Shown here: positions 16,992-55,570 of the stretch, in pieces
How the letters are laid out: each line of letters opens with the position of its first letter
Position numbering within the stretch: position 1 is the stretch's first letter
The notes under the pieces: generated by a model
Told to the model about the DNA's origin: nothing
The model's input: the letters and a program-made list of their open reading frames with translations, nothing else
The model's database searches: none
Made by a program: the position numbers and the translations under genes
Virus record (IMG/VR): IMGVR_UViG_3300032562_000005
Length of the DNA: 64,000 nucleotides
Source: a virus
Direction: 5' to 3' (one strand)

Positions 16992-18902
16992 TTAGTTGGC
17001 TGGTGCGTTTTGACGGCGATTTGCTCTAGAAAAGTCAAATCTATTAACAAATTTAGTCATTCCGCCTGGATGTGATATAACCCAGCCCTCTTGTCCTGGA
17101 TGTTGGCGATCCAATTGCTGTAACATATCCATCTTAATATTATGTAACAATACAAAGGCAGAAAATGCGGCACTTAATCCATCCATATTACTTCTTGGAC
17201 TTTGTAAATATTCAACAATGTTATTATACTTGCGCGGTGTTACTTTAGTTTGTAACCATTTAGCAAATCCTGGAACTAGTGTGCTCACATCAAAATCTGC
17301 CACAGTATCATCTTTAACTAGACTATTAATATAATCTACACATAAACGAGGTAAATCGCTGATTTGTAACTGTCTAAGTTCAGCAGGACTAAACAAAGTA
17401 TTGATTGCTTGCCCGTGTCCACTGACTAAACCTTTTAATTGTTTGACTAAACTACTATCAGTTGGCTTAACATTCTCTTTAGGAGTAATAGGCTCAATAA
17501 GCAATAAGCCTGGAACTGAATTTAATTTTACATTTCCCAAAGGCTCTTTGCCAGCGCCTTGCTCTTTATAGTAAGTGTGGATAGCAATGCCAACTTGACT
17601 GCCAGCAATTTCTTGTCCTAGTTTTGAACTAACAGGAATATTATATTCTACAGTATTTGGTTTGAATACAAAAGCCCCAGATACTTCAGGCGGGGTACTT
17701 GTATAAAGTAAATCGCCTTGTATATAACCCCTAAAATCTTTAGGTGTGGCTTGCTCTAACATAGGCCAAAGTGTTTGGTAGATAGGAGCCAATTGCGCCA
17801 CACGATTCGCTGATAAACCTTTTGCTTTAGCTTCAGCATCGCGGTTAGCTAAATGTTGTGTAATTTGTTTTGGACTTGTAAACAATCCCTGATAGCCAAC
17901 TGCGCCAAACCCAGCTACATCTGTTAATACAAAAGTGCCATCTGGTTCCCGACCAAATACTACTGCTGGTTTTCCGTCCCATTTCACAGTAACAGATGAT
18001 GTTGTGTTATCTTTAAGATGCGCTATAACTGCTAATGCTTCTTTGATGCCAGCTGTCCCTTTGCGGAATACCAAGTCTTCGATATGTTCAATACCCTTAG
18101 CTTGTCCGCCTTTAACTTCAGTATTTTCGATTAATTTTGCCATTCCTTTGTTAACAATACGGTCACGCAAGCGAGCCAAGAAGTTTGTGTCTGACTCACC
18201 GCGTGTTTCAAAGAATGGTACTCCTGCTTTAGTAAAGTGATCTCGAGCTTGTGCTAATTTTTCATCTTTCTTAGGATCATTTTGTAGTGCCTGGACAATA
18301 GTTTCCACAGAGTAGAGGTCATCCTTCGTAGCTCTAGGGTTAAGTAAAATTTTAGCGATCTTGTCTGGATCGGTTTCAACAACTTCTTCATTAGCACGAT
18401 TAATAATACCACGGCGCTGATCTAGTTTATATCCTAATGCTTTAGCAACTGAGTTAATTAATATATTACGATCTGACCCTTTATATTCTGAATTTGCCGG
18501 AGCAGACAAAAAGAATTTACCTACTCCTAAATTTTTCATAAACATAAAATCGGTTTGTACATAGCCGTTATTAGGGTTTCCGTTTATAGGAGTTTTAAAA
18601 TGTATATTGGTGCCTGCTTTTTTAACATATTCATTTGGTTTTAAATTATGGCTAGTACACCATTGTGTAAGTTCTGCGGCTAATTGCTCAGGAGAAATTT
18701 CATTAATATCTACAGCTACATCTAAGTCTCCCGATGTAGGCTTCAATCCTGTACTACCTAAAGTATTATTTTGTAAATCAATATCCAACATTTGCTCAAG
18801 CCAATTTAATGTAGGCTTAACATCCGTTTGGTTAATTCGTTGTGTTAGGGCTTGGCCGTCTCCGTTTTTAAAAACATTGCCGCCTTCTTTTAATAATCTC
18901 AT
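16992..18902 (-). CDS. fusion of Pol-beta-type nucleotidyltransferase and KxDG RNA-ligase-like domain
   Basis: LGSTG....SGDLDVAV and VQTDF; VKWDG, QGDLLY, QEGWV, KFVNR. Confidence 0.7.
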   Translation of the reverse strand: MRLLKEGGNVFKNGDGQALTQRINQTDVKPTLNWLEQMLDIDLQNNTLGSTGLKPTSGDLDVAVDINEISPEQLAAELTQWCTSHNLKPNEYVKKAGTNIHFKTPINGNPNNGYVQTDFMFMKNLGVGKFFLSAPANSEYKGSDRNILINSVAKALGYKLDQRRGIINRANEEVVETDPDKIAKILLNPRATKDDLYSVETIVQALQNDPKKDEKLAQARDHFTKAGVPFFETRGESDTNFLARLRDRIVNKGMAKLIENTEVKGGQAKGIEHIEDLVFRKGTAGIKEALAVIAHLKDNTTSSVTVKWDGKPAVVFGREPDGTFVLTDVAGFGAVGYQGLFTSPKQITQHLANRDAEAKAKGLSANRVAQLAPIYQTLWPMLEQATPKDFRGYIQGDLLYTSTPPEVSGAFVFKPNTVEYNIPVSSKLGQEIAGSQVGIAIHTYYKEQGAGKEPLGNVKLNSVPGLLLIEPITPKENVKPTDSSLVKQLKGLVSGHGQAINTLFSPAELRQLQISDLPRLCVDYINSLVKDDTVADFDVSTLVPGFAKWLQTKVTPRKYNNIVEYLQSPRSNMDGLSAAFSAFVLLHNIKMDMLQQLDRQHPGQEGWVISHPGGMTKFVNRFDFSRANRRQNAPAN

Positions 18903-19981
18903 CGTTTTTTTACCGCTTGTATTAATTTATCAATTGTTTGAGAACCAGTATTTGGATTACTGATTGTTTCACCGTTTTGTTGAATTTTTTGTTGTAATGT
19001 AGCAATAGCTGTAGGACTTATACCTAGTTGTTGGGCAATACCTTGCTGGGCATACTGGGCACTCGGTGATACTCCTGCTTGCCCTTGAGCTTGTTGACCT
19101 TGCGAAATTCTGCTAACAGAGCTTAATGCTAAATCAACATATTGTTGAAAAGCTCTATCAATATCTTGCGGAGTTTTTGCTACTTTCATTGTATCGAAAA
19201 TAGTAGATAATTTTTGCTTAACTTCATCTGGTACACTTTGTAATCCTGGAATATGTTGACTTATCCAAGTATTAAAATCTTTAGCAATATCTTTTTTCTG
19301 TGGTCCATTGGCTGGCTGTGTAACGCCAGGAGTTCTGGCTCTAGCCTTCATAGTTGCTAATCTATTTGGATTAATACGAGCCTCTTTAGTTACTTGCGGT
19401 GCTGCGGCATTAGATTTTACTGGAGCTACAGGCGGAACAGCCGAAGGATTTAATTGAACTCCTTTGGGATTATCTGCCTTGGCATTTAACATAGCAACAG
19501 ATTTAGGATTAGTAATTTTTTGTCCAGTTTCGTCAGTCCATGTACCACTATTATCTTTTGTGTACGACGTAGGCGAAGTAGTTCCAGGTTGCTGAATTTG
19601 CACAGTAATTCCGCCTTCGTCGGCCGCAGGGCCTGCTCCGCCAGTTTTAATATCAAACTCCTGGTCAAATGCTTTTTGTAATTGTGCTATTTTTTGTTGT
19701 TGCTGTTGTTTTACTCTAGTAGGTGTAGGCGCTTGAGCTGCTGGTGTAGTAGTGTCAACATTGAATCCTTTACGCTGAAGTGCCTGTGCTGCTTTTGCTG
19801 ATTGGGCATTTCTTTTATCTTGTTTTTTATCCCACTGTTTTTCTTGGGCACGATCGCCAGCCGCAATAAATTTATCCTTGGCGTTAGCATACCCAGTCTT
19901 AGTTGCGCTAACTGCTTTTTTAACTGAATCTAAAATGCCTTCGTCTGTGCGTTGGAGTTTAGTTATTTCATGAATTTGCAT
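18899..19981 (-). CDS. putative internal virion protein
   Basis: MQIHEI...DEGILD N-terminus; low complexity Q/A/K. Confidence 0.5.
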   Translation of the reverse strand: MQIHEITKLQRTDEGILDSVKKAVSATKTGYANAKDKFIAAGDRAQEKQWDKKQDKRNAQSAKAAQALQRKGFNVDTTTPAAQAPTPTRVKQQQQQKIAQLQKAFDQEFDIKTGGAGPAADEGGITVQIQQPGTTSPTSYTKDNSGTWTDETGQKITNPKSVAMLNAKADNPKGVQLNPSAVPPVAPVKSNAAAPQVTKEARINPNRLATMKARARTPGVTQPANGPQKKDIAKDFNTWISQHIPGLQSVPDEVKQKLSTIFDTMKVAKTPQDIDRAFQQYVDLALSSVSRISQGQQAQGQAGVSPSAQYAQQGIAQQLGISPTAIATLQQKIQQNGETISNPNTGSQTIDKLIQAVKKR

Positions 19982-20216
19982 CAGTCTTCCTTACGGTGCG
20001 AGTAAACTTGCCTGGGTCGCGAAGTTTAATAGCATTAATTAATTTGCGTGTAAGGTTATCTGCTTGCTCGGGTGTATAAGACTCGTCAATTTGCTCTAGC
20101 AAGCGAATGGCACTTGCAATGATATTAGTCGCACGATTTTCGATAACATGACGCTGATCACGCTCGATATACATACTATCTAATTCTTCTAATAAACTAC
20201 GGGTTTTCTTTTGCAT
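19968..20216 (-). CDS. hypothetical protein
   Basis: 82-aa helical ORF. Confidence 0.65.
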   Translation of the reverse strand: MQKKTRSLLEELDSMYIERDQRHVIENRATNIIASAIRLLEQIDESYTPEQADNLTRKLINAIKLRDPGKFTRTVRKTDANS

Positions 20217-20269
20217 ATTTGCCAGAACCTTTTTATTATTTATTACAATTTGAATTATGGGCTCTGTAA

Positions 20270-21673
20270 TTAATTAGGTTTAATTTGCCCTAATAATGCC
20301 TTTAATTTGCTACTTTGTACTTCTGCCGTAATTTTAGCTACTTCTCCAGTATCGGAATCTATAGTTTCCCCACTGCTAACCCTGCTTTGGGTTTTAATAT
20401 TGTCGTAAATGTTAGATTTTTTAAATGAATTTACTGGAGTCGCATCTTCAGGTAAATCAGTAATACGCATAGTTTCGATATTATAGTCTAATTCAACTTT
20501 TTGTCCTGTGCCGTTAGATGTACGAGTTTTCATACATTGTAATTGATAGCGTCCACGCTCTTTCATAGCACGACTTGTAAAGATACCAAACACATTATCT
20601 GCCGTATTAATCTTACTAATACCACCGGAAATATGACTGTGGTCAAATTCAATTTCTTCCACAGCCGCACGATTTAACTGCGAAGCTGTTACTAGTAATA
20701 CATTAAGTTCTTTAGCTAAGTTACGCAATTCTTCCGAAACATACTTGTCTTTAACGAACAAATCATTTGGGCTCACTTTAGCACTTACTGGCATTAATAA
20801 GTCCAAGTAGTCAACCATTACAAAGTCAATCTTGATGCCTGTTTGTACTTGTACTTCTTTTAAGTAACTGCGGACATCATTAATATTACTTTGCGCTGGC
20901 AATGCCTTAACACGATATTGCCCAGACTTTTTACCAAACATTTTAATCTTTAATTCTGCTGTTTCTAAATCCTTGCGAATATCTTTAGTTCCCATACCTG
21001 CTAGCATCGCATCAGTACGCAATCCAACTAGCTCTTCTGAAAGTTCTAAACTGATATATGCCCCACTAAGGCCTTGTTCTAACCACGCTAACGCAATATT
21101 CATCATAACAAGCGATTTACCTGAACCAGATCCGCCTGCGAAAATGTTAAGTTCTCCACGACTAAATCCACCATAAAGAATTCTATCTAAACTTGGCCAG
21201 CCAGTACTTACTTGTCCGCCACTATTAAAGTACTTGTCATTACGAGCTCGCGGATCAGCAAAATAATCTGTGCCCATATCTTTTTGTAAACTAATTTGAA
21301 CTGCGTCTTTAATTAATTTTTCTACTGGATCAAAATCACCTTTGTCCAACATATCATATGATTTAAGAATTGCTCTACTAAGTTCTTCTTTCTTAGTAAA
21401 ACCTTCGAATTCTTCCATAAACCAATCTAAATTACCTTCAGGTAATTCTGGAAGTGTTTCTAGTTTAGATCCGGTTGCCGCATTAATTTGCTGTAATACT
21501 GGCAATGAGCCATGCTCTTCAAAGTGAATTTTTACAAACTCAGCCGCAGTTCGCAAACTACGGTCAAAATTTTCTGGATTGTAAATATTTTGAACTCGCA
21601 CAAATGATTCAGCATCACTGAGCATCATTTCCAAGAATAATTTTTGTACTTCAATACTATAATCTTTTAACAA
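20270..21673 (-). CDS. replicative DnaB-family helicase (T4 gp41-like)
   Basis: GGSGSGKS Walker A, SLELSE, VDYLDL, TASQLNR. Confidence 0.93.
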   Translation of the reverse strand: MLKDYSIEVQKLFLEMMLSDAESFVRVQNIYNPENFDRSLRTAAEFVKIHFEEHGSLPVLQQINAATGSKLETLPELPEGNLDWFMEEFEGFTKKEELSRAILKSYDMLDKGDFDPVEKLIKDAVQISLQKDMGTDYFADPRARNDKYFNSGGQVSTGWPSLDRILYGGFSRGELNIFAGGSGSGKSLVMMNIALAWLEQGLSGAYISLELSEELVGLRTDAMLAGMGTKDIRKDLETAELKIKMFGKKSGQYRVKALPAQSNINDVRSYLKEVQVQTGIKIDFVMVDYLDLLMPVSAKVSPNDLFVKDKYVSEELRNLAKELNVLLVTASQLNRAAVEEIEFDHSHISGGISKINTADNVFGIFTSRAMKERGRYQLQCMKTRTSNGTGQKVELDYNIETMRITDLPEDATPVNSFKKSNIYDNIKTQSRVSSGETIDSDTGEVAKITAEVQSSKLKALLGQIKPN

Positions 21674-22637
21674 GTTGCTTCCTTTTTATTTCAATTTTAT
21701 ATTTGTTAGTTTCTCTAGATTGTAATATAGTTAGTAGTGTCGCTACCTTACCCATACAAATCACAGCATCGTTAACATCCTTAATGCCAGTGGGCCAATC
21801 TGGAATACTAACAGCCCAACCTAATTCTATTGCTTTATCTACTAATGCCATGCCAGCCTTATCTTGGTCTGGGACTACTGTAATAGTTTTTCCTAAACTT
21901 TTAATCACTTGTGCTTGCGTCGAATTAATATCATTATGTAATACGGCTAGCCCATTGATAGCTAGCGCATCGAATACTCCTTCGACTACAATAGTGTGTT
22001 GCCATGAATCTTTTTGTAAGTCAACTCCAAATACATATCCCTGTTGTGTATCTGAAATAAATTTAGGCATTCTGCCATCTATATATCTAGCAGAGTTACC
22101 TACCATCAAACCCTTGTGTGTAAAGGGTATTACAATTTGTTTGCTTAACCTGCCTGCCGCTTCTGGGCTTACCATATACGGATATGCCGTACAATCTATT
22201 CCACGACCTTCTAAGTATTCAATATACGGGAAATGTAGCGGATTGTCAAGATCCAATAGTTCCAAGTCTGCGGGTAAATCTCTTTCTTCAAATTCTACTG
22301 CCTTAATTATTGTTCGATTGCTTTCTAACATACCATTCATGGTACGATGTCTAAGACTTTCGATATTAATTTGTTCTATTACTTGTTGATCTACACCAAT
22401 CCATTCTAATAACTTACGAGCTTTAAATGATAAATTTCTTCCTAAAACAAAGCTAGCTGTGTACCCACAATTAAAACAGTGATAACTCCACCCACCTTCT
22501 GGCATAGGTTTTAGGCCGCCACGCTGTCTTTTGTCTTGACTATTGCCCCGATGAATACAACAAGGAGCGTTAAATGATATCCAGCCGGAACTAGTCTGTT
22601 TTCGTTTCGCAGGGAGAAAAGATATCACATCAATCAT
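21657..22637 (-). CDS. DNA primase (gp61-like)
   Basis: Zn-binding PCC...HCFNC; TOPRIM VEGVFDA, PDQDKAG, KDVND. Confidence 0.9.
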   Translation of the reverse strand: MIDVISFLPAKRKQTSSGWISFNAPCCIHRGNSQDKRQRGGLKPMPEGGWSYHCFNCGYTASFVLGRNLSFKARKLLEWIGVDQQVIEQINIESLRHRTMNGMLESNRTIIKAVEFEERDLPADLELLDLDNPLHFPYIEYLEGRGIDCTAYPYMVSPEAAGRLSKQIVIPFTHKGLMVGNSARYIDGRMPKFISDTQQGYVFGVDLQKDSWQHTIVVEGVFDALAINGLAVLHNDINSTQAQVIKSLGKTITVVPDQDKAGMALVDKAIELGWAVSIPDWPTGIKDVNDAVICMGKVATLLTILQSRETNKYKIEIKRKQLVKRL

Positions 22638-24966: not shown

Positions 24967-25533
24967 TTATTTTTCTGACAATAAATTCATGTGCAACGCC
25001 ACCAAGACGCTGTAAGAAATTGAATGGGCCTTTTTGAATGTAAAGCCTTTAGAATCATCCCCGTCCCAAACAGTTTCAAAGATTTCCTTCCAAGGTTTAT
25101 TTTGTAAGTGGGCCTTACCTGGCCTAATAATCGCGATAAATGCCGCCATTCTTGGTATTGAATCTGGCTTCATTTTACTTAACAAGTCTGTATAATTTCC
25201 AATATGTACTAACTGTTTAGCCCACTCGGGGTCAGTCCATAGTCTTTCCCACGGCGGTTGTTTATCTAGCATTGCTCGATAATGTTCAGGAGATTTAACT
25301 AATTGATAAACTGACATATTAAGTAAGTCAATTTTAAAATATCCTCGTTGTTCGGCTTCCTCGTAATCGATAGCCGCACATTCATTTACTGGGTCATACG
25401 GAATATCAGTAACATATACACCTGATGCGTGACGTCTGACTTGATTTTGTGTGATCTGCCTGGCAGGAATAGCTTGAATAAGTTTTAAAACTTGTTCTCT
25501 GTCAGCTAAATCGATATCAATATCTGCGCTCAT
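24967..25533 (-). CDS. miniature DNA polymerase III alpha (DnaE)-like protein, 188 aa
   Basis: ADIDID, HASGV, FKIDLL, AIIRPG, FKKAHSISY. Confidence 0.75.
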   Translation of the reverse strand: MSADIDIDLADREQVLKLIQAIPARQITQNQVRRHASGVYVTDIPYDPVNECAAIDYEEAEQRGYFKIDLLNMSVYQLVKSPEHYRAMLDKQPPWERLWTDPEWAKQLVHIGNYTDLLSKMKPDSIPRMAAFIAIIRPGKAHLQNKPWKEIFETVWDGDDSKGFTFKKAHSISYSVLVALHMNLLSEK

Positions 25534-25904
25534 AGTAGCACTAGTATAGCAATAATTCCAATATAAGTCAAGTAATGTAGCCCTTGATCGGCGCCGTGTA
25601 ATATCCAAAACTCTTTGTCGTTGGGTGTATAGTCTCGAGCAAGATTTGTTTTGACCCAATCAATATGATAATGGATGATGCCATCTAAAAATCCTAATAT
25701 AACTGCTAACTCGATAGATGGAATAGCTACAGCCAATACTAAAAAAGTTCCGGCGGTATGAAGTAACGCATGATGTCTACCGCCTTCTGCTCCGTATATT
25801 CCTTTTTCTGATAACATATAAGGAAACTGTAGCCAGAAGTCACATATAAAATGTTTAATCCCAAATAGTGCTAATAAAATAATTGTTAGCGTTGTCATCA
25901 CCAA
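25530..25904 (-). CDS. DUF3307-like membrane protein
   Basis: KHFICDFWLQ, H...H, HYHIDWVK, GADQGLH. Confidence 0.7.
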   Translation of the reverse strand: MVMTTLTIILLALFGIKHFICDFWLQFPYMLSEKGIYGAEGGRHHALLHTAGTFLVLAVAIPSIELAVILGFLDGIIHYHIDWVKTNLARDYTPNDKEFWILHGADQGLHYLTYIGIIAILVLL

Positions 25905-45481: not shown

Positions 45482-45506
45482 GATTGTTTCCTATATTATA
45501 TTTATA

Positions 45507-55519: not shown

Positions 55520-55570
55520 ACTACTATTTATACACTATCCTATAATCCAAGTCAATCTCAATCTATCCAA

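Follow-up and report, generated by a model that had tools for sequence, protein, structure and literature searches.

In IMG/VR virus record IMGVR_UViG_3300032562_000005, of which one stretch of 64,000 nucleotides (the window) was analysed, a single open reading frame (ORF) of 636 amino acids (aa) on the minus strand (16992-18902) couples a nucleotidyltransferase-like half to a ligase-like half, raising the question of why a phage would make two such enzymes as one chain, what they would act on and where. The frame opens with ATG, and Pfam recognizes only its C-terminal half, as DUF6267. The family is abundant, with more than 4,000 full-length, fused homologs in metagenomes, none of which bears a functional name, and 375 phage records for DUF6267. 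We favour, at about an even chance, the explanation that the product is a packaged and processed fill-and-seal polyprotein that combines a polymerase resembling DNA polymerase family X (PolX) with a DUF6267 ligase-fold enzyme, most likely acting on DNA. An initial annotation, made from the letters alone, had assigned the two halves to the Pol-beta and the ligase/capping superfamilies; structure prediction of each domain bears out both assignments, and the departure from these folds that would have refuted them was not seen.

Two modules and their folds

The frame comprises a leader, a PolX-like module (N-module), a linker and a ligase-fold module (C-module), laid out as follows.

16992..18902, minus strand: whole ORF, 636 aa plus stop, with leader, PolX-like module, linker and DUF6267 ligase-fold module
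18126..18884, minus strand: PolX-like nucleotidyltransferase module (aa 7-259) made up of palm and thumb and extended by helices at its C-terminus (AlphaFold2, Foldseek, VIA-align)
18708..18761, minus strand: GS motif and first two catalytic carboxylates, LGSTG (48-52) and SGDLDVAVD (57-65; D59, D61), on conserved columns
18540..18560, minus strand: strand VQTDFMF with the third catalytic carboxylate (D118), an aspartate that is invariant in alignment A4
16995..18125, minus strand: ligase-fold module, aa 260-636 (Pfam DUF6267, AlphaFold2, VIA-align)
17019-18092, minus strand: Pfam DUF6267 span, aa 271-628 (PF19782)
17967..17987, minus strand: motif I, VKWDGKP, with K307 as the predicted AMP-accepting lysine (K307, D309 and G310 invariant, n=62)
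17103..17456, minus strand: insert consisting of helices alone, aa ~483-600, after the motif IIIa region and before motif IV (modelled secondary structure)
17040..17090, minus strand: motif IV, EGWV (605-608), and motif V, KFVNR (617-621), on neighbouring strands (conservation and model)

Every motif quoted in the initial annotation was found in the frame: MRLLKE|GGN (aa 1-9), LGSTG (48-52), SGDLDVAVD (57-65) and VQTDFMF (115-121) in the N-terminal half, and LIE (257-259), VKWDG (306-310), QGDLLY (395-400), EGWV (605-608) and KFVNR (617-621) in the linker and C-terminal half. These motifs fall on invariant or nearly invariant columns of the homolog alignments and are therefore not chance strings. 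In an alignment of 50 diverse homologs, the N-module columns G49, G52, S57, G58, D59, D61, D65, Q116 and D118 are conserved in at least 90% of sequences; across 62 homologs of the C-module, K307, D309, G310, K590 and K617 are invariant, and H273, E275, D276, E605, G606 and R621 are conserved in at least 90%.

The N-module was modelled by AlphaFold2 (aa 1-262) with a predicted local distance difference test (pLDDT) score of 91.8 and a predicted template-modelling (pTM) score of 0.83, and every Foldseek and VIA-align match to it is a Pol-beta-fold enzyme. The best Foldseek matches are Pol lambda, Pol beta and a bacterial (Tth) PolX, over ~190-200 columns. In VIA-align the module scores Z 10.3 with Pol beta (root-mean-square deviation 3.3, 164 aa), 10.1 with its palm-thumb fragment 3lqc, 9.5 with TdT, 9.4 with Pol lambda, 8.8 with the PolX of African swine fever virus (ASFV; 157 aligned residues on a 176-residue chain) and 8.7 with Thermus PolX, the PolX alignments spanning 156-178 residues at Z 8.7-10.3, whereas TUTases, CD-NTases, poly(A) polymerases and CCA-adding enzymes align over a core of ~85 residues alone, at Z 5-7 (maximum 7.1). 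The module has the marks of the Pol-beta superfamily (G49-S50, D59-x-D61, D118 and the core fold), and its palm and thumb superpose on those of Pol beta and Pol lambda, the structural hallmark of PolX. The 8-kDa subdomain (5'-deoxyribose phosphate (dRP) lyase and 5'-phosphate binding) and the fingers subdomain are not present in the N-module, and the alignments begin at Pol beta residue ~97-150. ASFV PolX was the sole previously known palm-thumb form without these two domains (PMC5537341), and the target can thus be no more than a minimal PolX; on the model, we place the N-module in the Pol-beta superfamily as a PolX-like, minimal and highly divergent member.

Weak sequence-level support for the PolX link agrees in direction with the fold. 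The GS...DxD segment of one relative (P0341) passes the Pfam DNA_pol_B_palm model PF14792, at 26.1 bits against a cutoff of 25; among the 50 homologs, weak matches to the Pol-beta palm (2) and thumb (3) are, with AbiEii, among the few families to recur at E ≤ 1; and a language-model atlas gave weak leads to NTP_transf_2 and Pol-beta palm clusters. NCBIfam returned no match to the target, and PHROGs placed it in an unnamed family. Membership of RlaP, the 'RNA ligase-associating Pol-beta' family (PF10127; PMC7824862, with biochemistry in preprint 10.64898/2025.12.29.696909), was considered and rejected, with no profile match in the target or among the 25 families listed for the 50 homologs (E ≤ 1). 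Three relatives that carry the fusion (G001-G003) had no PF10127 match either, in a search that does find a true RlaP elsewhere in the jumbo phage Atu_ph07.

The C-module matches PF19782 with E 3.7e-36 (125.7 bits, cutoff 27) over profile positions 4-371 of 376, and its AlphaFold2 model (aa 255-636) has pLDDT 93.5 and pTM 0.89. Foldseek E-values are weak, the best (8e-4) being the adenylyltransferase domain of a fungal tRNA ligase. The best 30 VIA-align matches are all covalent nucleotidyltransferases, at Z 5.1-8.1 with ~140-200 aa aligned: RNA ligases (NgrRnl Z 8.1 over 179 aa, REL1 7.4, Trl1 6.9, T4 Rnl2 6.7), DNA ligases (about 6-6.7) and capping enzymes (about 5). The ligase alignments cover model residues 15-380 but align ~140-200 of them. 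In the model, strands E50-53 and E59-64 flank motif I (K307-W-D-G), and motifs III (FVLTD, 324-328), IIIa (GDLLY, 396-400), IV and V (K617) are conserved, in order and on strands. Z-scores of this size are, by themselves, suggestive; the unanimous structural matches and the invariant catalytic motifs together make the assignment of modelled DUF6267 to the ligase/capping superfamily of covalent nucleotidyltransferases secure. They do not separate RNA from DNA ligases, because many VIA-align rows lie within about 1 Z unit of one another and several are tied.

No OB domain is present in the C-module, whose chain stops 15 aa past motif V and which contains instead a helical insert of ~120 residues. 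The target matched neither the classical DNA-ligase profiles PF01068 and PF01653 nor those of Rnl1 (PF09511) and Rnl2 (PF09414), whose resemblance to it in fold is one that all ligases have in common, and the language-model atlas gave a weak lead to PF09414, at 0.76. No paper in the searched literature mentions 'DUF6267', and none describes a phage PolX or a fold for DUF6267. The insert may vary in nature: the DUF6267 frame of cyanophage P-SSM2 (AY939844.2 58606-59469, at ~58.6 kb of the record) is shorter, at 303 aa; its match to the profile falls into two parts and skips positions ~265-311, and it may be a variant with a reduced helical insert.

Coupling, proposed processing sites and possible virion carriage

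An exhaustive search with the N-module returned 628 clusters at 50% identity, in many architectures. Among the 147 best clusters, 57 hold the N-module and DUF6267 together, 52 in the order N-C, 3 in the order C-N and 2 in more complex arrangements; when domains are fused in either order, functional coupling is the classic interpretation. Independently, in two clusters (P0361 and P0379) the N-module is fused to a PF09414-type ligase, with matches slightly below the Pfam cutoff that cover the whole model. In Atu_ph07, a standalone N-module gene, gp065 (gp65), directly follows gp066 (gp66), in which K-L-D-G is found at residue 9 and to which PF09414 matches weakly over the full length. A relationship of gp066 to DUF6267 was rejected, since hhalign was not significant and a motif-I-like stretch alone is shared. 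From the two kinds of fusion and the gp066 adjacency it follows that the N-module pairs with two, possibly three, types of polynucleotide ligase. Such coupling to a ligase is RlaP-like in its logic, without RlaP membership. The proposal in the initial annotation of a two-enzyme device for end repair is well supported by these fusions, found in both orders and with two ligase families.

Two short segments at the module boundaries carry the L-x-E pattern.

18885..18902, minus strand: leader MRLLKE (aa 1-6), ending in L-x-E, proposed propeptide (comparative motif; residues 1-4 with pLDDT <50)
18126..18134, minus strand: linker L-I-E (aa 257-259), proposed inter-module cleavage site (low-confidence segment)

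The prohead protease gp21 of T4 is specific for L/I-x-E, and the T4 head-internal proteins IPI-III and Alt have short N-terminal leaders that end in L/I-x-E, are cut by gp21 and are ejected as cargo with the DNA. The leader of the target is similar, although these proteins share neither sequence nor fold with it, and its own cleavage and packaging are putative. Among representatives of clusters whose domain start is intact, 123 of 138 have [LIVMF]-x-E directly before the invariant GGN (87 of 101 N-terminal copies and 36 of the 37 internal ones). L or I stands at P3 in 119 of these 123 sites, P2 varies freely and P1 is fixed, and the leaders are otherwise unconserved stretches of 3-25 residues. 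Ten clusters start at M-GGN, and Atu_ph07 gp65 likewise starts M-GG; such leaderless forms lack L-x-E, which must therefore be dispensable for the fold. A motif present wherever residues precede GGN looks, in these alignments, like a processing site, and this one fits the specificity of gp21.

The linker shows the same pattern. In 48 of 55 clusters the H-x-E-D with which DUF6267 starts is preceded, within 32 residues, by [LI]-x-E, often in fixed register, against 27% by chance; proteins in which DUF6267 comes first have a leader of their own that ends in L-x-E; and the L-I-E259 of the target is common to its subgroup. Linker pLDDT is 60-74 for aa 231-262 in the N-module model and <50 for aa 255-268 in the C-module model, and both proposed sites presumably lie in flexible segments. 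Two of the relatives, G001 and G002, have a gene for a gp21-type protease (Peptidase_S77), as do Atu_ph07 and cyanophage P-TIM40.

Proteomics of a relative points the same way. Atu_ph07 gp65, which is 40% identical to the N-module in an alignment that starts from GG (E 1e-21), is listed in Table S5 among the virion proteins (10 unique peptides, 36.8% coverage), within a run of virion-detected proteins from gp53 to gp69 that includes gp68 (PMC6102473). Packaging is also favoured by the operon of the target, which opens with a homolog of gp68 and is preceded by a late-promoter-like ATAAATA. Together, these patterns suggest cleavage at the conserved L-x-E sites and carriage in the capsid. Of the earlier suggestions, MRLLKE|G and the linker LIE as candidate cleavage sites are upheld by the conservation of both across clusters and by the leaderless GGN starts, and delivery with the genome followed by proteolytic separation gains indirect support from those sites, from the protease in relatives and from gp65 in virions. 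As a separate observation, ~10 tandem hypothetical proteins of ~30 kDa (gp055-gp064; L001) directly downstream of gp065 were all virion-detected (PMC6102473) and resemble an array of paralogous capsid or ejection proteins.

Substrate and site of action

In the mechanism that we favour, the protein would probably be synthesized late, from the three-gene operon that it ends, and enter the head, where a T4 gp21-type prohead protease would probably trim it after E6, exposing an N-terminal GGN, and also cut after E259. Both freed enzymes would then enter the cell together with the phage genome. The minimal family-X-like polymerase, with catalytic residues D59, D61 and D118, would add the missing nucleotide or nucleotides at a 3'-OH; DUF6267 would self-adenylylate at K307 of motif I, pass the AMP to a 5'-phosphate and seal the break. 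Most likely, this would amount to gap filling and nick sealing of DNA on the incoming or replicating phage genome.

Enzymes of comparable design are known. Bacterial LigD, like the target, is a multidomain fill-and-seal enzyme of break repair, but it combines an OB-containing ligase with a polymerase of the archaeo-eukaryotic primase fold, not that of Pol-beta. PgVPolX of Phaeocystis globosa virus 16T is, again like the target, a single viral polypeptide, with a PolX-type polymerase at its N-terminus and a ligase at its C-terminus, and its gap filling and nick sealing in concert, in base excision repair, have been shown biochemically (PMC5537341). It differs in its full Pol-beta core, with 8-kDa dRP-lyase and fingers domains, and in its canonical NAD+-dependent LigA-type ligase with motifs I-VI, whereas the target has palm plus thumb, OB-less DUF6267, a bacterial host and L-x-E sites flanking its modules. 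In ASFV, PolX and ligase are both packaged in the virion and repair viral DNA before replication (PMC12172490). ASFV PolX (O174L) is minimal like the N-module, without 8-kDa and fingers domains; the differences are that PolX and ligase (NP419L) are separate genes, that the ligase is a canonical ATP-dependent, OB-containing enzyme and that the virus is eukaryotic. Sequence and profile searches against PDB sequences detected no similarity between either ASFV enzyme and the target. RlaP, coupled with Rnl1 or Rnl2, resembles the target as a phage Pol-beta-superfamily nucleotidyltransferase genomically coupled to a polynucleotide ligase, and is predicted, and in a preprint shown, to add one or two nucleotides ahead of ligation, but it acts on RNA and has Rnl1/Rnl2 as partners where the target has DUF6267, and the true RlaP of Atu_ph07 sits at a separate locus. 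Judged by profile, the target belongs to none of the ligase families of PgVPolX, ASFV or the RlaP-Rnl systems.

The distribution of DUF6267 bears on the substrate. All six cyanomyoviruses searched have DUF6267, and none of the six has PF01068, PF01653, PF09414 or PF09511, the last search being validated by its positive match in Atu_ph07. At five cyanophage loci DUF6267 always lies downstream of a gp41-type helicase, in the replication module. That DUF6267 is the sole ligase-fold gene of these viruses fits published remarks that T4-like cyanophages have no known DNA ligase (PMC7824862, Iyer et al. 2021; PMC2993671, Petrov et al. 2010). The picture differs in relatives G001-G003, which encode a canonical PF01068 ATP-dependent DNA ligase ~18 kb from the fusion gene: there, sealing of DNA by DUF6267 would be specialised rather than essential, and the idea that DUF6267 is the only DNA ligase of this lineage is ruled out. 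The window itself holds no homolog of that ligase. In the same three relatives PF09414 matched the canonical DNA-ligase ORF alone and PF09511 matched nothing, and the PNK-type kinase (PF13671) and Endo IV (PF01261) profiles gave sub-threshold matches only.

We lean towards DNA on the strength of the PolX fold with its thumb, the status of DUF6267 as sole ligase-fold gene in cyanomyoviruses, its position in their replication module, the PgVPolX and ASFV precedents and the lack of a Pnkp-type kinase match above the cutoff. Among repair readings, DNA as substrate seems to us slightly better than an even call, and RNA a clearly smaller likelihood. The emphasis on RNA in the initial annotation is not supported as it stood, given an N-module that is PolX-like and not RlaP, the same missing kinase and the cyanomyovirus pattern; DNA is at least as likely.

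Several observations weigh against a packaged, DNA-directed fill-and-seal enzyme. Neither Pfam PolX model (palm PF14792, thumb PF14791) matched the target at E ≤ 0.1, and PDB sequences gave no match to the whole protein or the N-module profile. The ligase-fold Z-scores of the C-module are middling (maximum 8.1), with RNA ligases slightly above DNA ligases, and all DNA ligases characterised to date have, to our knowledge, the OB domain that it lacks. The canonical ligase of the three relatives belongs on this side too, as does the location of the Peptidase_S77 gene, which was found in relatives and not within the 64-kb window, and which by synteny would fall outside it. The virion evidence concerns a distant relative and the N-module alone; the ligase-like gp66 is absent from the Atu_ph07 virion list, and those virions were purified with polyethylene glycol (PEG) and also contained a few non-structural proteins, with traces of RecA-like, SSB and ribonucleotide reductase proteins (PMC6102473). 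Finally, the conservation of L-x-E could be structural rather than a matter of cleavage.

The best-surviving alternative, which we regard as possible though unlikely, is repair of RNA, the reading preferred in the initial annotation: the N-module would restore one or two trimmed nucleotides of a cleaved tRNA and the ligase would reseal it, as a functional counterpart of the RlaP-Rnl systems and of T4 Pnkp/Rnl1, countering host anticodon nucleases such as RloC, possibly after delivery from the capsid. RNA ligases are the best structural matches of the C-module, which like Rnl1 and Rnl2 has a helical accessory module and no OB domain; the N-module is also fused to PF09414 'RNA_ligase'-type domains; the lineage has a DNA ligase and no Rnl1 or Rnl2, so that DUF6267 would occupy the RNA-ligase niche; and some relatives carry fused HAD/NT5C phosphatase domains. 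RlaP, which adds one or two nucleoside monophosphates to damaged RNA, supplies a precedent (PMC7824862; preprint 10.64898/2025.12.29.696909). Yet the N-module is not an RlaP (no PF10127) and resembles DNA gap-filling PolX down to the thumb, and the Z differences between RNA and DNA ligases are mostly about 1.5 or less, with several rows tied. In addition, G001-G003 have no Pnkp-type kinase above the cutoff, the window has no tRNA genes, the DUF6267 gene of cyanomyoviruses sits in a DNA replication module with no healing enzymes annotated alongside, and Atu_ph07 already has Rnl1, a PNK-type kinase, RlaP and Rnl2 elsewhere, besides gp65/gp66.

Less probable still is an ordinary cytoplasmic enzyme of replication or repair, patching Okazaki fragments or base-excision sites, neither packaged nor processed, with L-x-E-G-G-N as the first element of the fold. 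Its position directly downstream of primase and helicase would suit such a role, as would the leaderless cyanophage DUF6267 in its replication module, and the Atu_ph07 virions, purified by PEG alone, contained contaminant traces. What speaks against it is that L-x-E, dispensable for the fold, is almost invariant before GGN even in the internal copies (36/37), with P2 variable and P3 and P1 fixed as in the T4 gp21 site; that gp65, at 10 peptides and 36.8% coverage, stands far above the contaminants and within the virion run gp53-gp69; and that relatives fuse the module to domains of polyvalent proteins (ART-PolyVal, Tad3).

Such partner domains raise one more alternative. A cytidylyltransferase/NMNAT-like domain is the third recurrent partner, fused to the N-module and/or DUF6267 in 14 of 56 multidomain relatives, and ART-PolyVal, Tad3, HAD/NT5C phosphatase and amidoligase domains are fused occasionally. 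A role outside polynucleotides, on small nucleotides or proteins (making or destroying defence signalling nucleotides, NAD+-linked chemistry together with the NMNAT-like partner, or host AMPylation, for example), could draw on the cytidylyltransferase partner (14/56 relatives and 5/5 cyanophage loci), on the occasional fusion with the Thoeris inhibitor Tad3, ART-PolyVal or NT5C and on the Pol-beta core of CD-NTases and MenT-type toxins, but is very improbable. Those enzymes match a core of ~85 residues at Z 5-6, against palm plus thumb of PolX at Z ~10, and the top structural matches of the C-module are without exception enzymes that ligate polynucleotides or cap them. A second family of polynucleotide ligases is also, independently, a fusion partner of the N-module, and polyvalent fusions join unrelated functions, which makes partner domains weak evidence. 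For the nucleotidylating effector that the initial annotation had offered as an alternative we found nothing specific.

If the packaged fill-and-seal reading holds, it would give the abundant DUF6267 a fold-level assignment as a ligase and offer a candidate answer to the apparent absence of a ligase from T4-like cyanophages; it would extend family X-like polymerases to bacteriophages, in a minimal palm-thumb form known before from ASFV alone; and head-carried repair enzymes freed by the prohead protease would be a new class of ejected cargo beside anti-restriction proteins and ADP-ribosyltransferases. As reagents, a ligase without an OB domain and a polymerase this small could be useful too. 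A bolder version, which we hold only tentatively and think unlikely as a whole, would make DUF6267 a new OB-less ligase family and the 'missing' DNA ligase of marine T4-like cyanophages, with a dedicated NMNAT-like partner that might regenerate its cofactor; in jumbo-phage relatives it would be fused to the first minimal phage PolX and matured by the prohead protease as capsid cargo, and the free amine of GGN might supply the AP/dRP-lyase function of the missing 8-kDa domain.

Genomic surroundings and further loci

The window belongs to a large myovirus, with a 1224-aa tail sheath, tail tube, large terminase, ribonucleotide reductase, primase and DnaB-type helicase. Close protein relatives come from two contigs, one of 317 kb and another of 344 kb that is complete, with terminal repeats, and no isolated phage is similar to the window at the DNA level. 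The target is the last gene of an overlapping three-gene operon directly downstream of the primase (21657-22637) and the DnaB-type helicase (20270-21673), and genes for ribonucleotide reductase, an exonuclease and NifU are also near. A late or structural-type neighbourhood, as first proposed, thus holds in one respect, the first gene of the operon being a homolog of a virion protein, and fails in another, given the primase, helicase and other genes of this kind close by. Upstream of the target the operon reads as follows.

18899..19981, minus strand: Q-rich ORF of 360 aa whose stop overlaps the ATG of the target (ATGA) (ORF call)
19968..20216, minus strand: first gene of the operon, 82 aa, homolog of the Atu_ph07 virion protein gp68 (phrog_11854, E 5e-17; BLASTP E 1e-9)
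20237..20243, minus strand: ATAAATA, resembling the core of a T4 late promoter, 20 nt ahead of the first ATG of the operon (sequence scan)

The Q-rich ORF was also considered as a homolog of Atu_ph07 gp67, with no significant similarity. Sites of the ATAAATA type recur: of 8 on the minus strand, 5 are at most 40 nt upstream of a gene start, where random placement would give 0.3, a contrast that AT-rich spacers inflate. TATAAATA/ATAAATA cores at 45499-45506, 55525-55532 and 20237-20243 and upstream of 24925 and 15530 stand 5-24 nt upstream of minus-strand gene starts, and of 34 occurrences of TAAATA on the minus strand, 17 are within 40 nt upstream of a start (~1.5 expected, random placement). 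The pattern suggests that this phage has T4-like late promoters.

In cyanomyoviruses the gene right after DUF6267 is a 'cytidyltransferase' (PF01467, weakly NMNAT/PPAT-like) at 5 of 5 loci from different genera.

L002:6010-8274; L107:3049-4811; L108:2983-5306; L109:2983-5303; L110:2983-5264: DUF6267-cytidyltransferase pairs, with stop and start codons mostly overlapping or abutting

One idea for a cytidylyltransferase beside a ligase is regeneration of the cofactor. NCBIfam gave these partners NMNAT/PPAT-type matches alone, far below threshold, and when phage DNA and RNA ligases, RlaP and a cytidylyltransferase were run by phmmer against the collected proteins, the cytidylyltransferase query alone matched. 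Two further candidates at cyanophage loci were rejected. P-TIM40 gp181 (259 aa), immediately upstream of DUF6267, is not a cryptic N-module (hhalign probability 0.2%), and the standalone ligase DNA-binding domain AAX44695.1 (Iyer 2021) is not a neighbour of DUF6267 within a 47-kb stretch of P-SSM2 around it; nor does it have a homolog in the window or at the P-TIM40 locus.

Near the canonical DNA ligase of the relatives, ~5 kb downstream, an ORF of ~400 aa, possibly a polynucleotide kinase, has a sub-threshold P-loop AAA_33 match.

G002:C1:182726-182881 (L105); G003:C1:71631-71774 (L104): sub-threshold AAA_33 loci

Two relatives of the N-module, P0299 (1002 aa) and P0331 (866 aa), embed it in polyvalent-type proteins with the Thoeris inhibitor Tad3 or an ART-PolyVal ADP-ribosyltransferase, and fusions of this kind place some relatives, by domain content, among the 'polyvalent' counter-defence proteins. 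Elsewhere in the window, a 230-aa ORF (24967-25659, minus strand) matches the PHROG 'DNA polymerase' family phrog_11778 (E 7e-57), and the replicative polymerase may be split in pieces, as annotated in Atu_ph07 (gp276/gp277).

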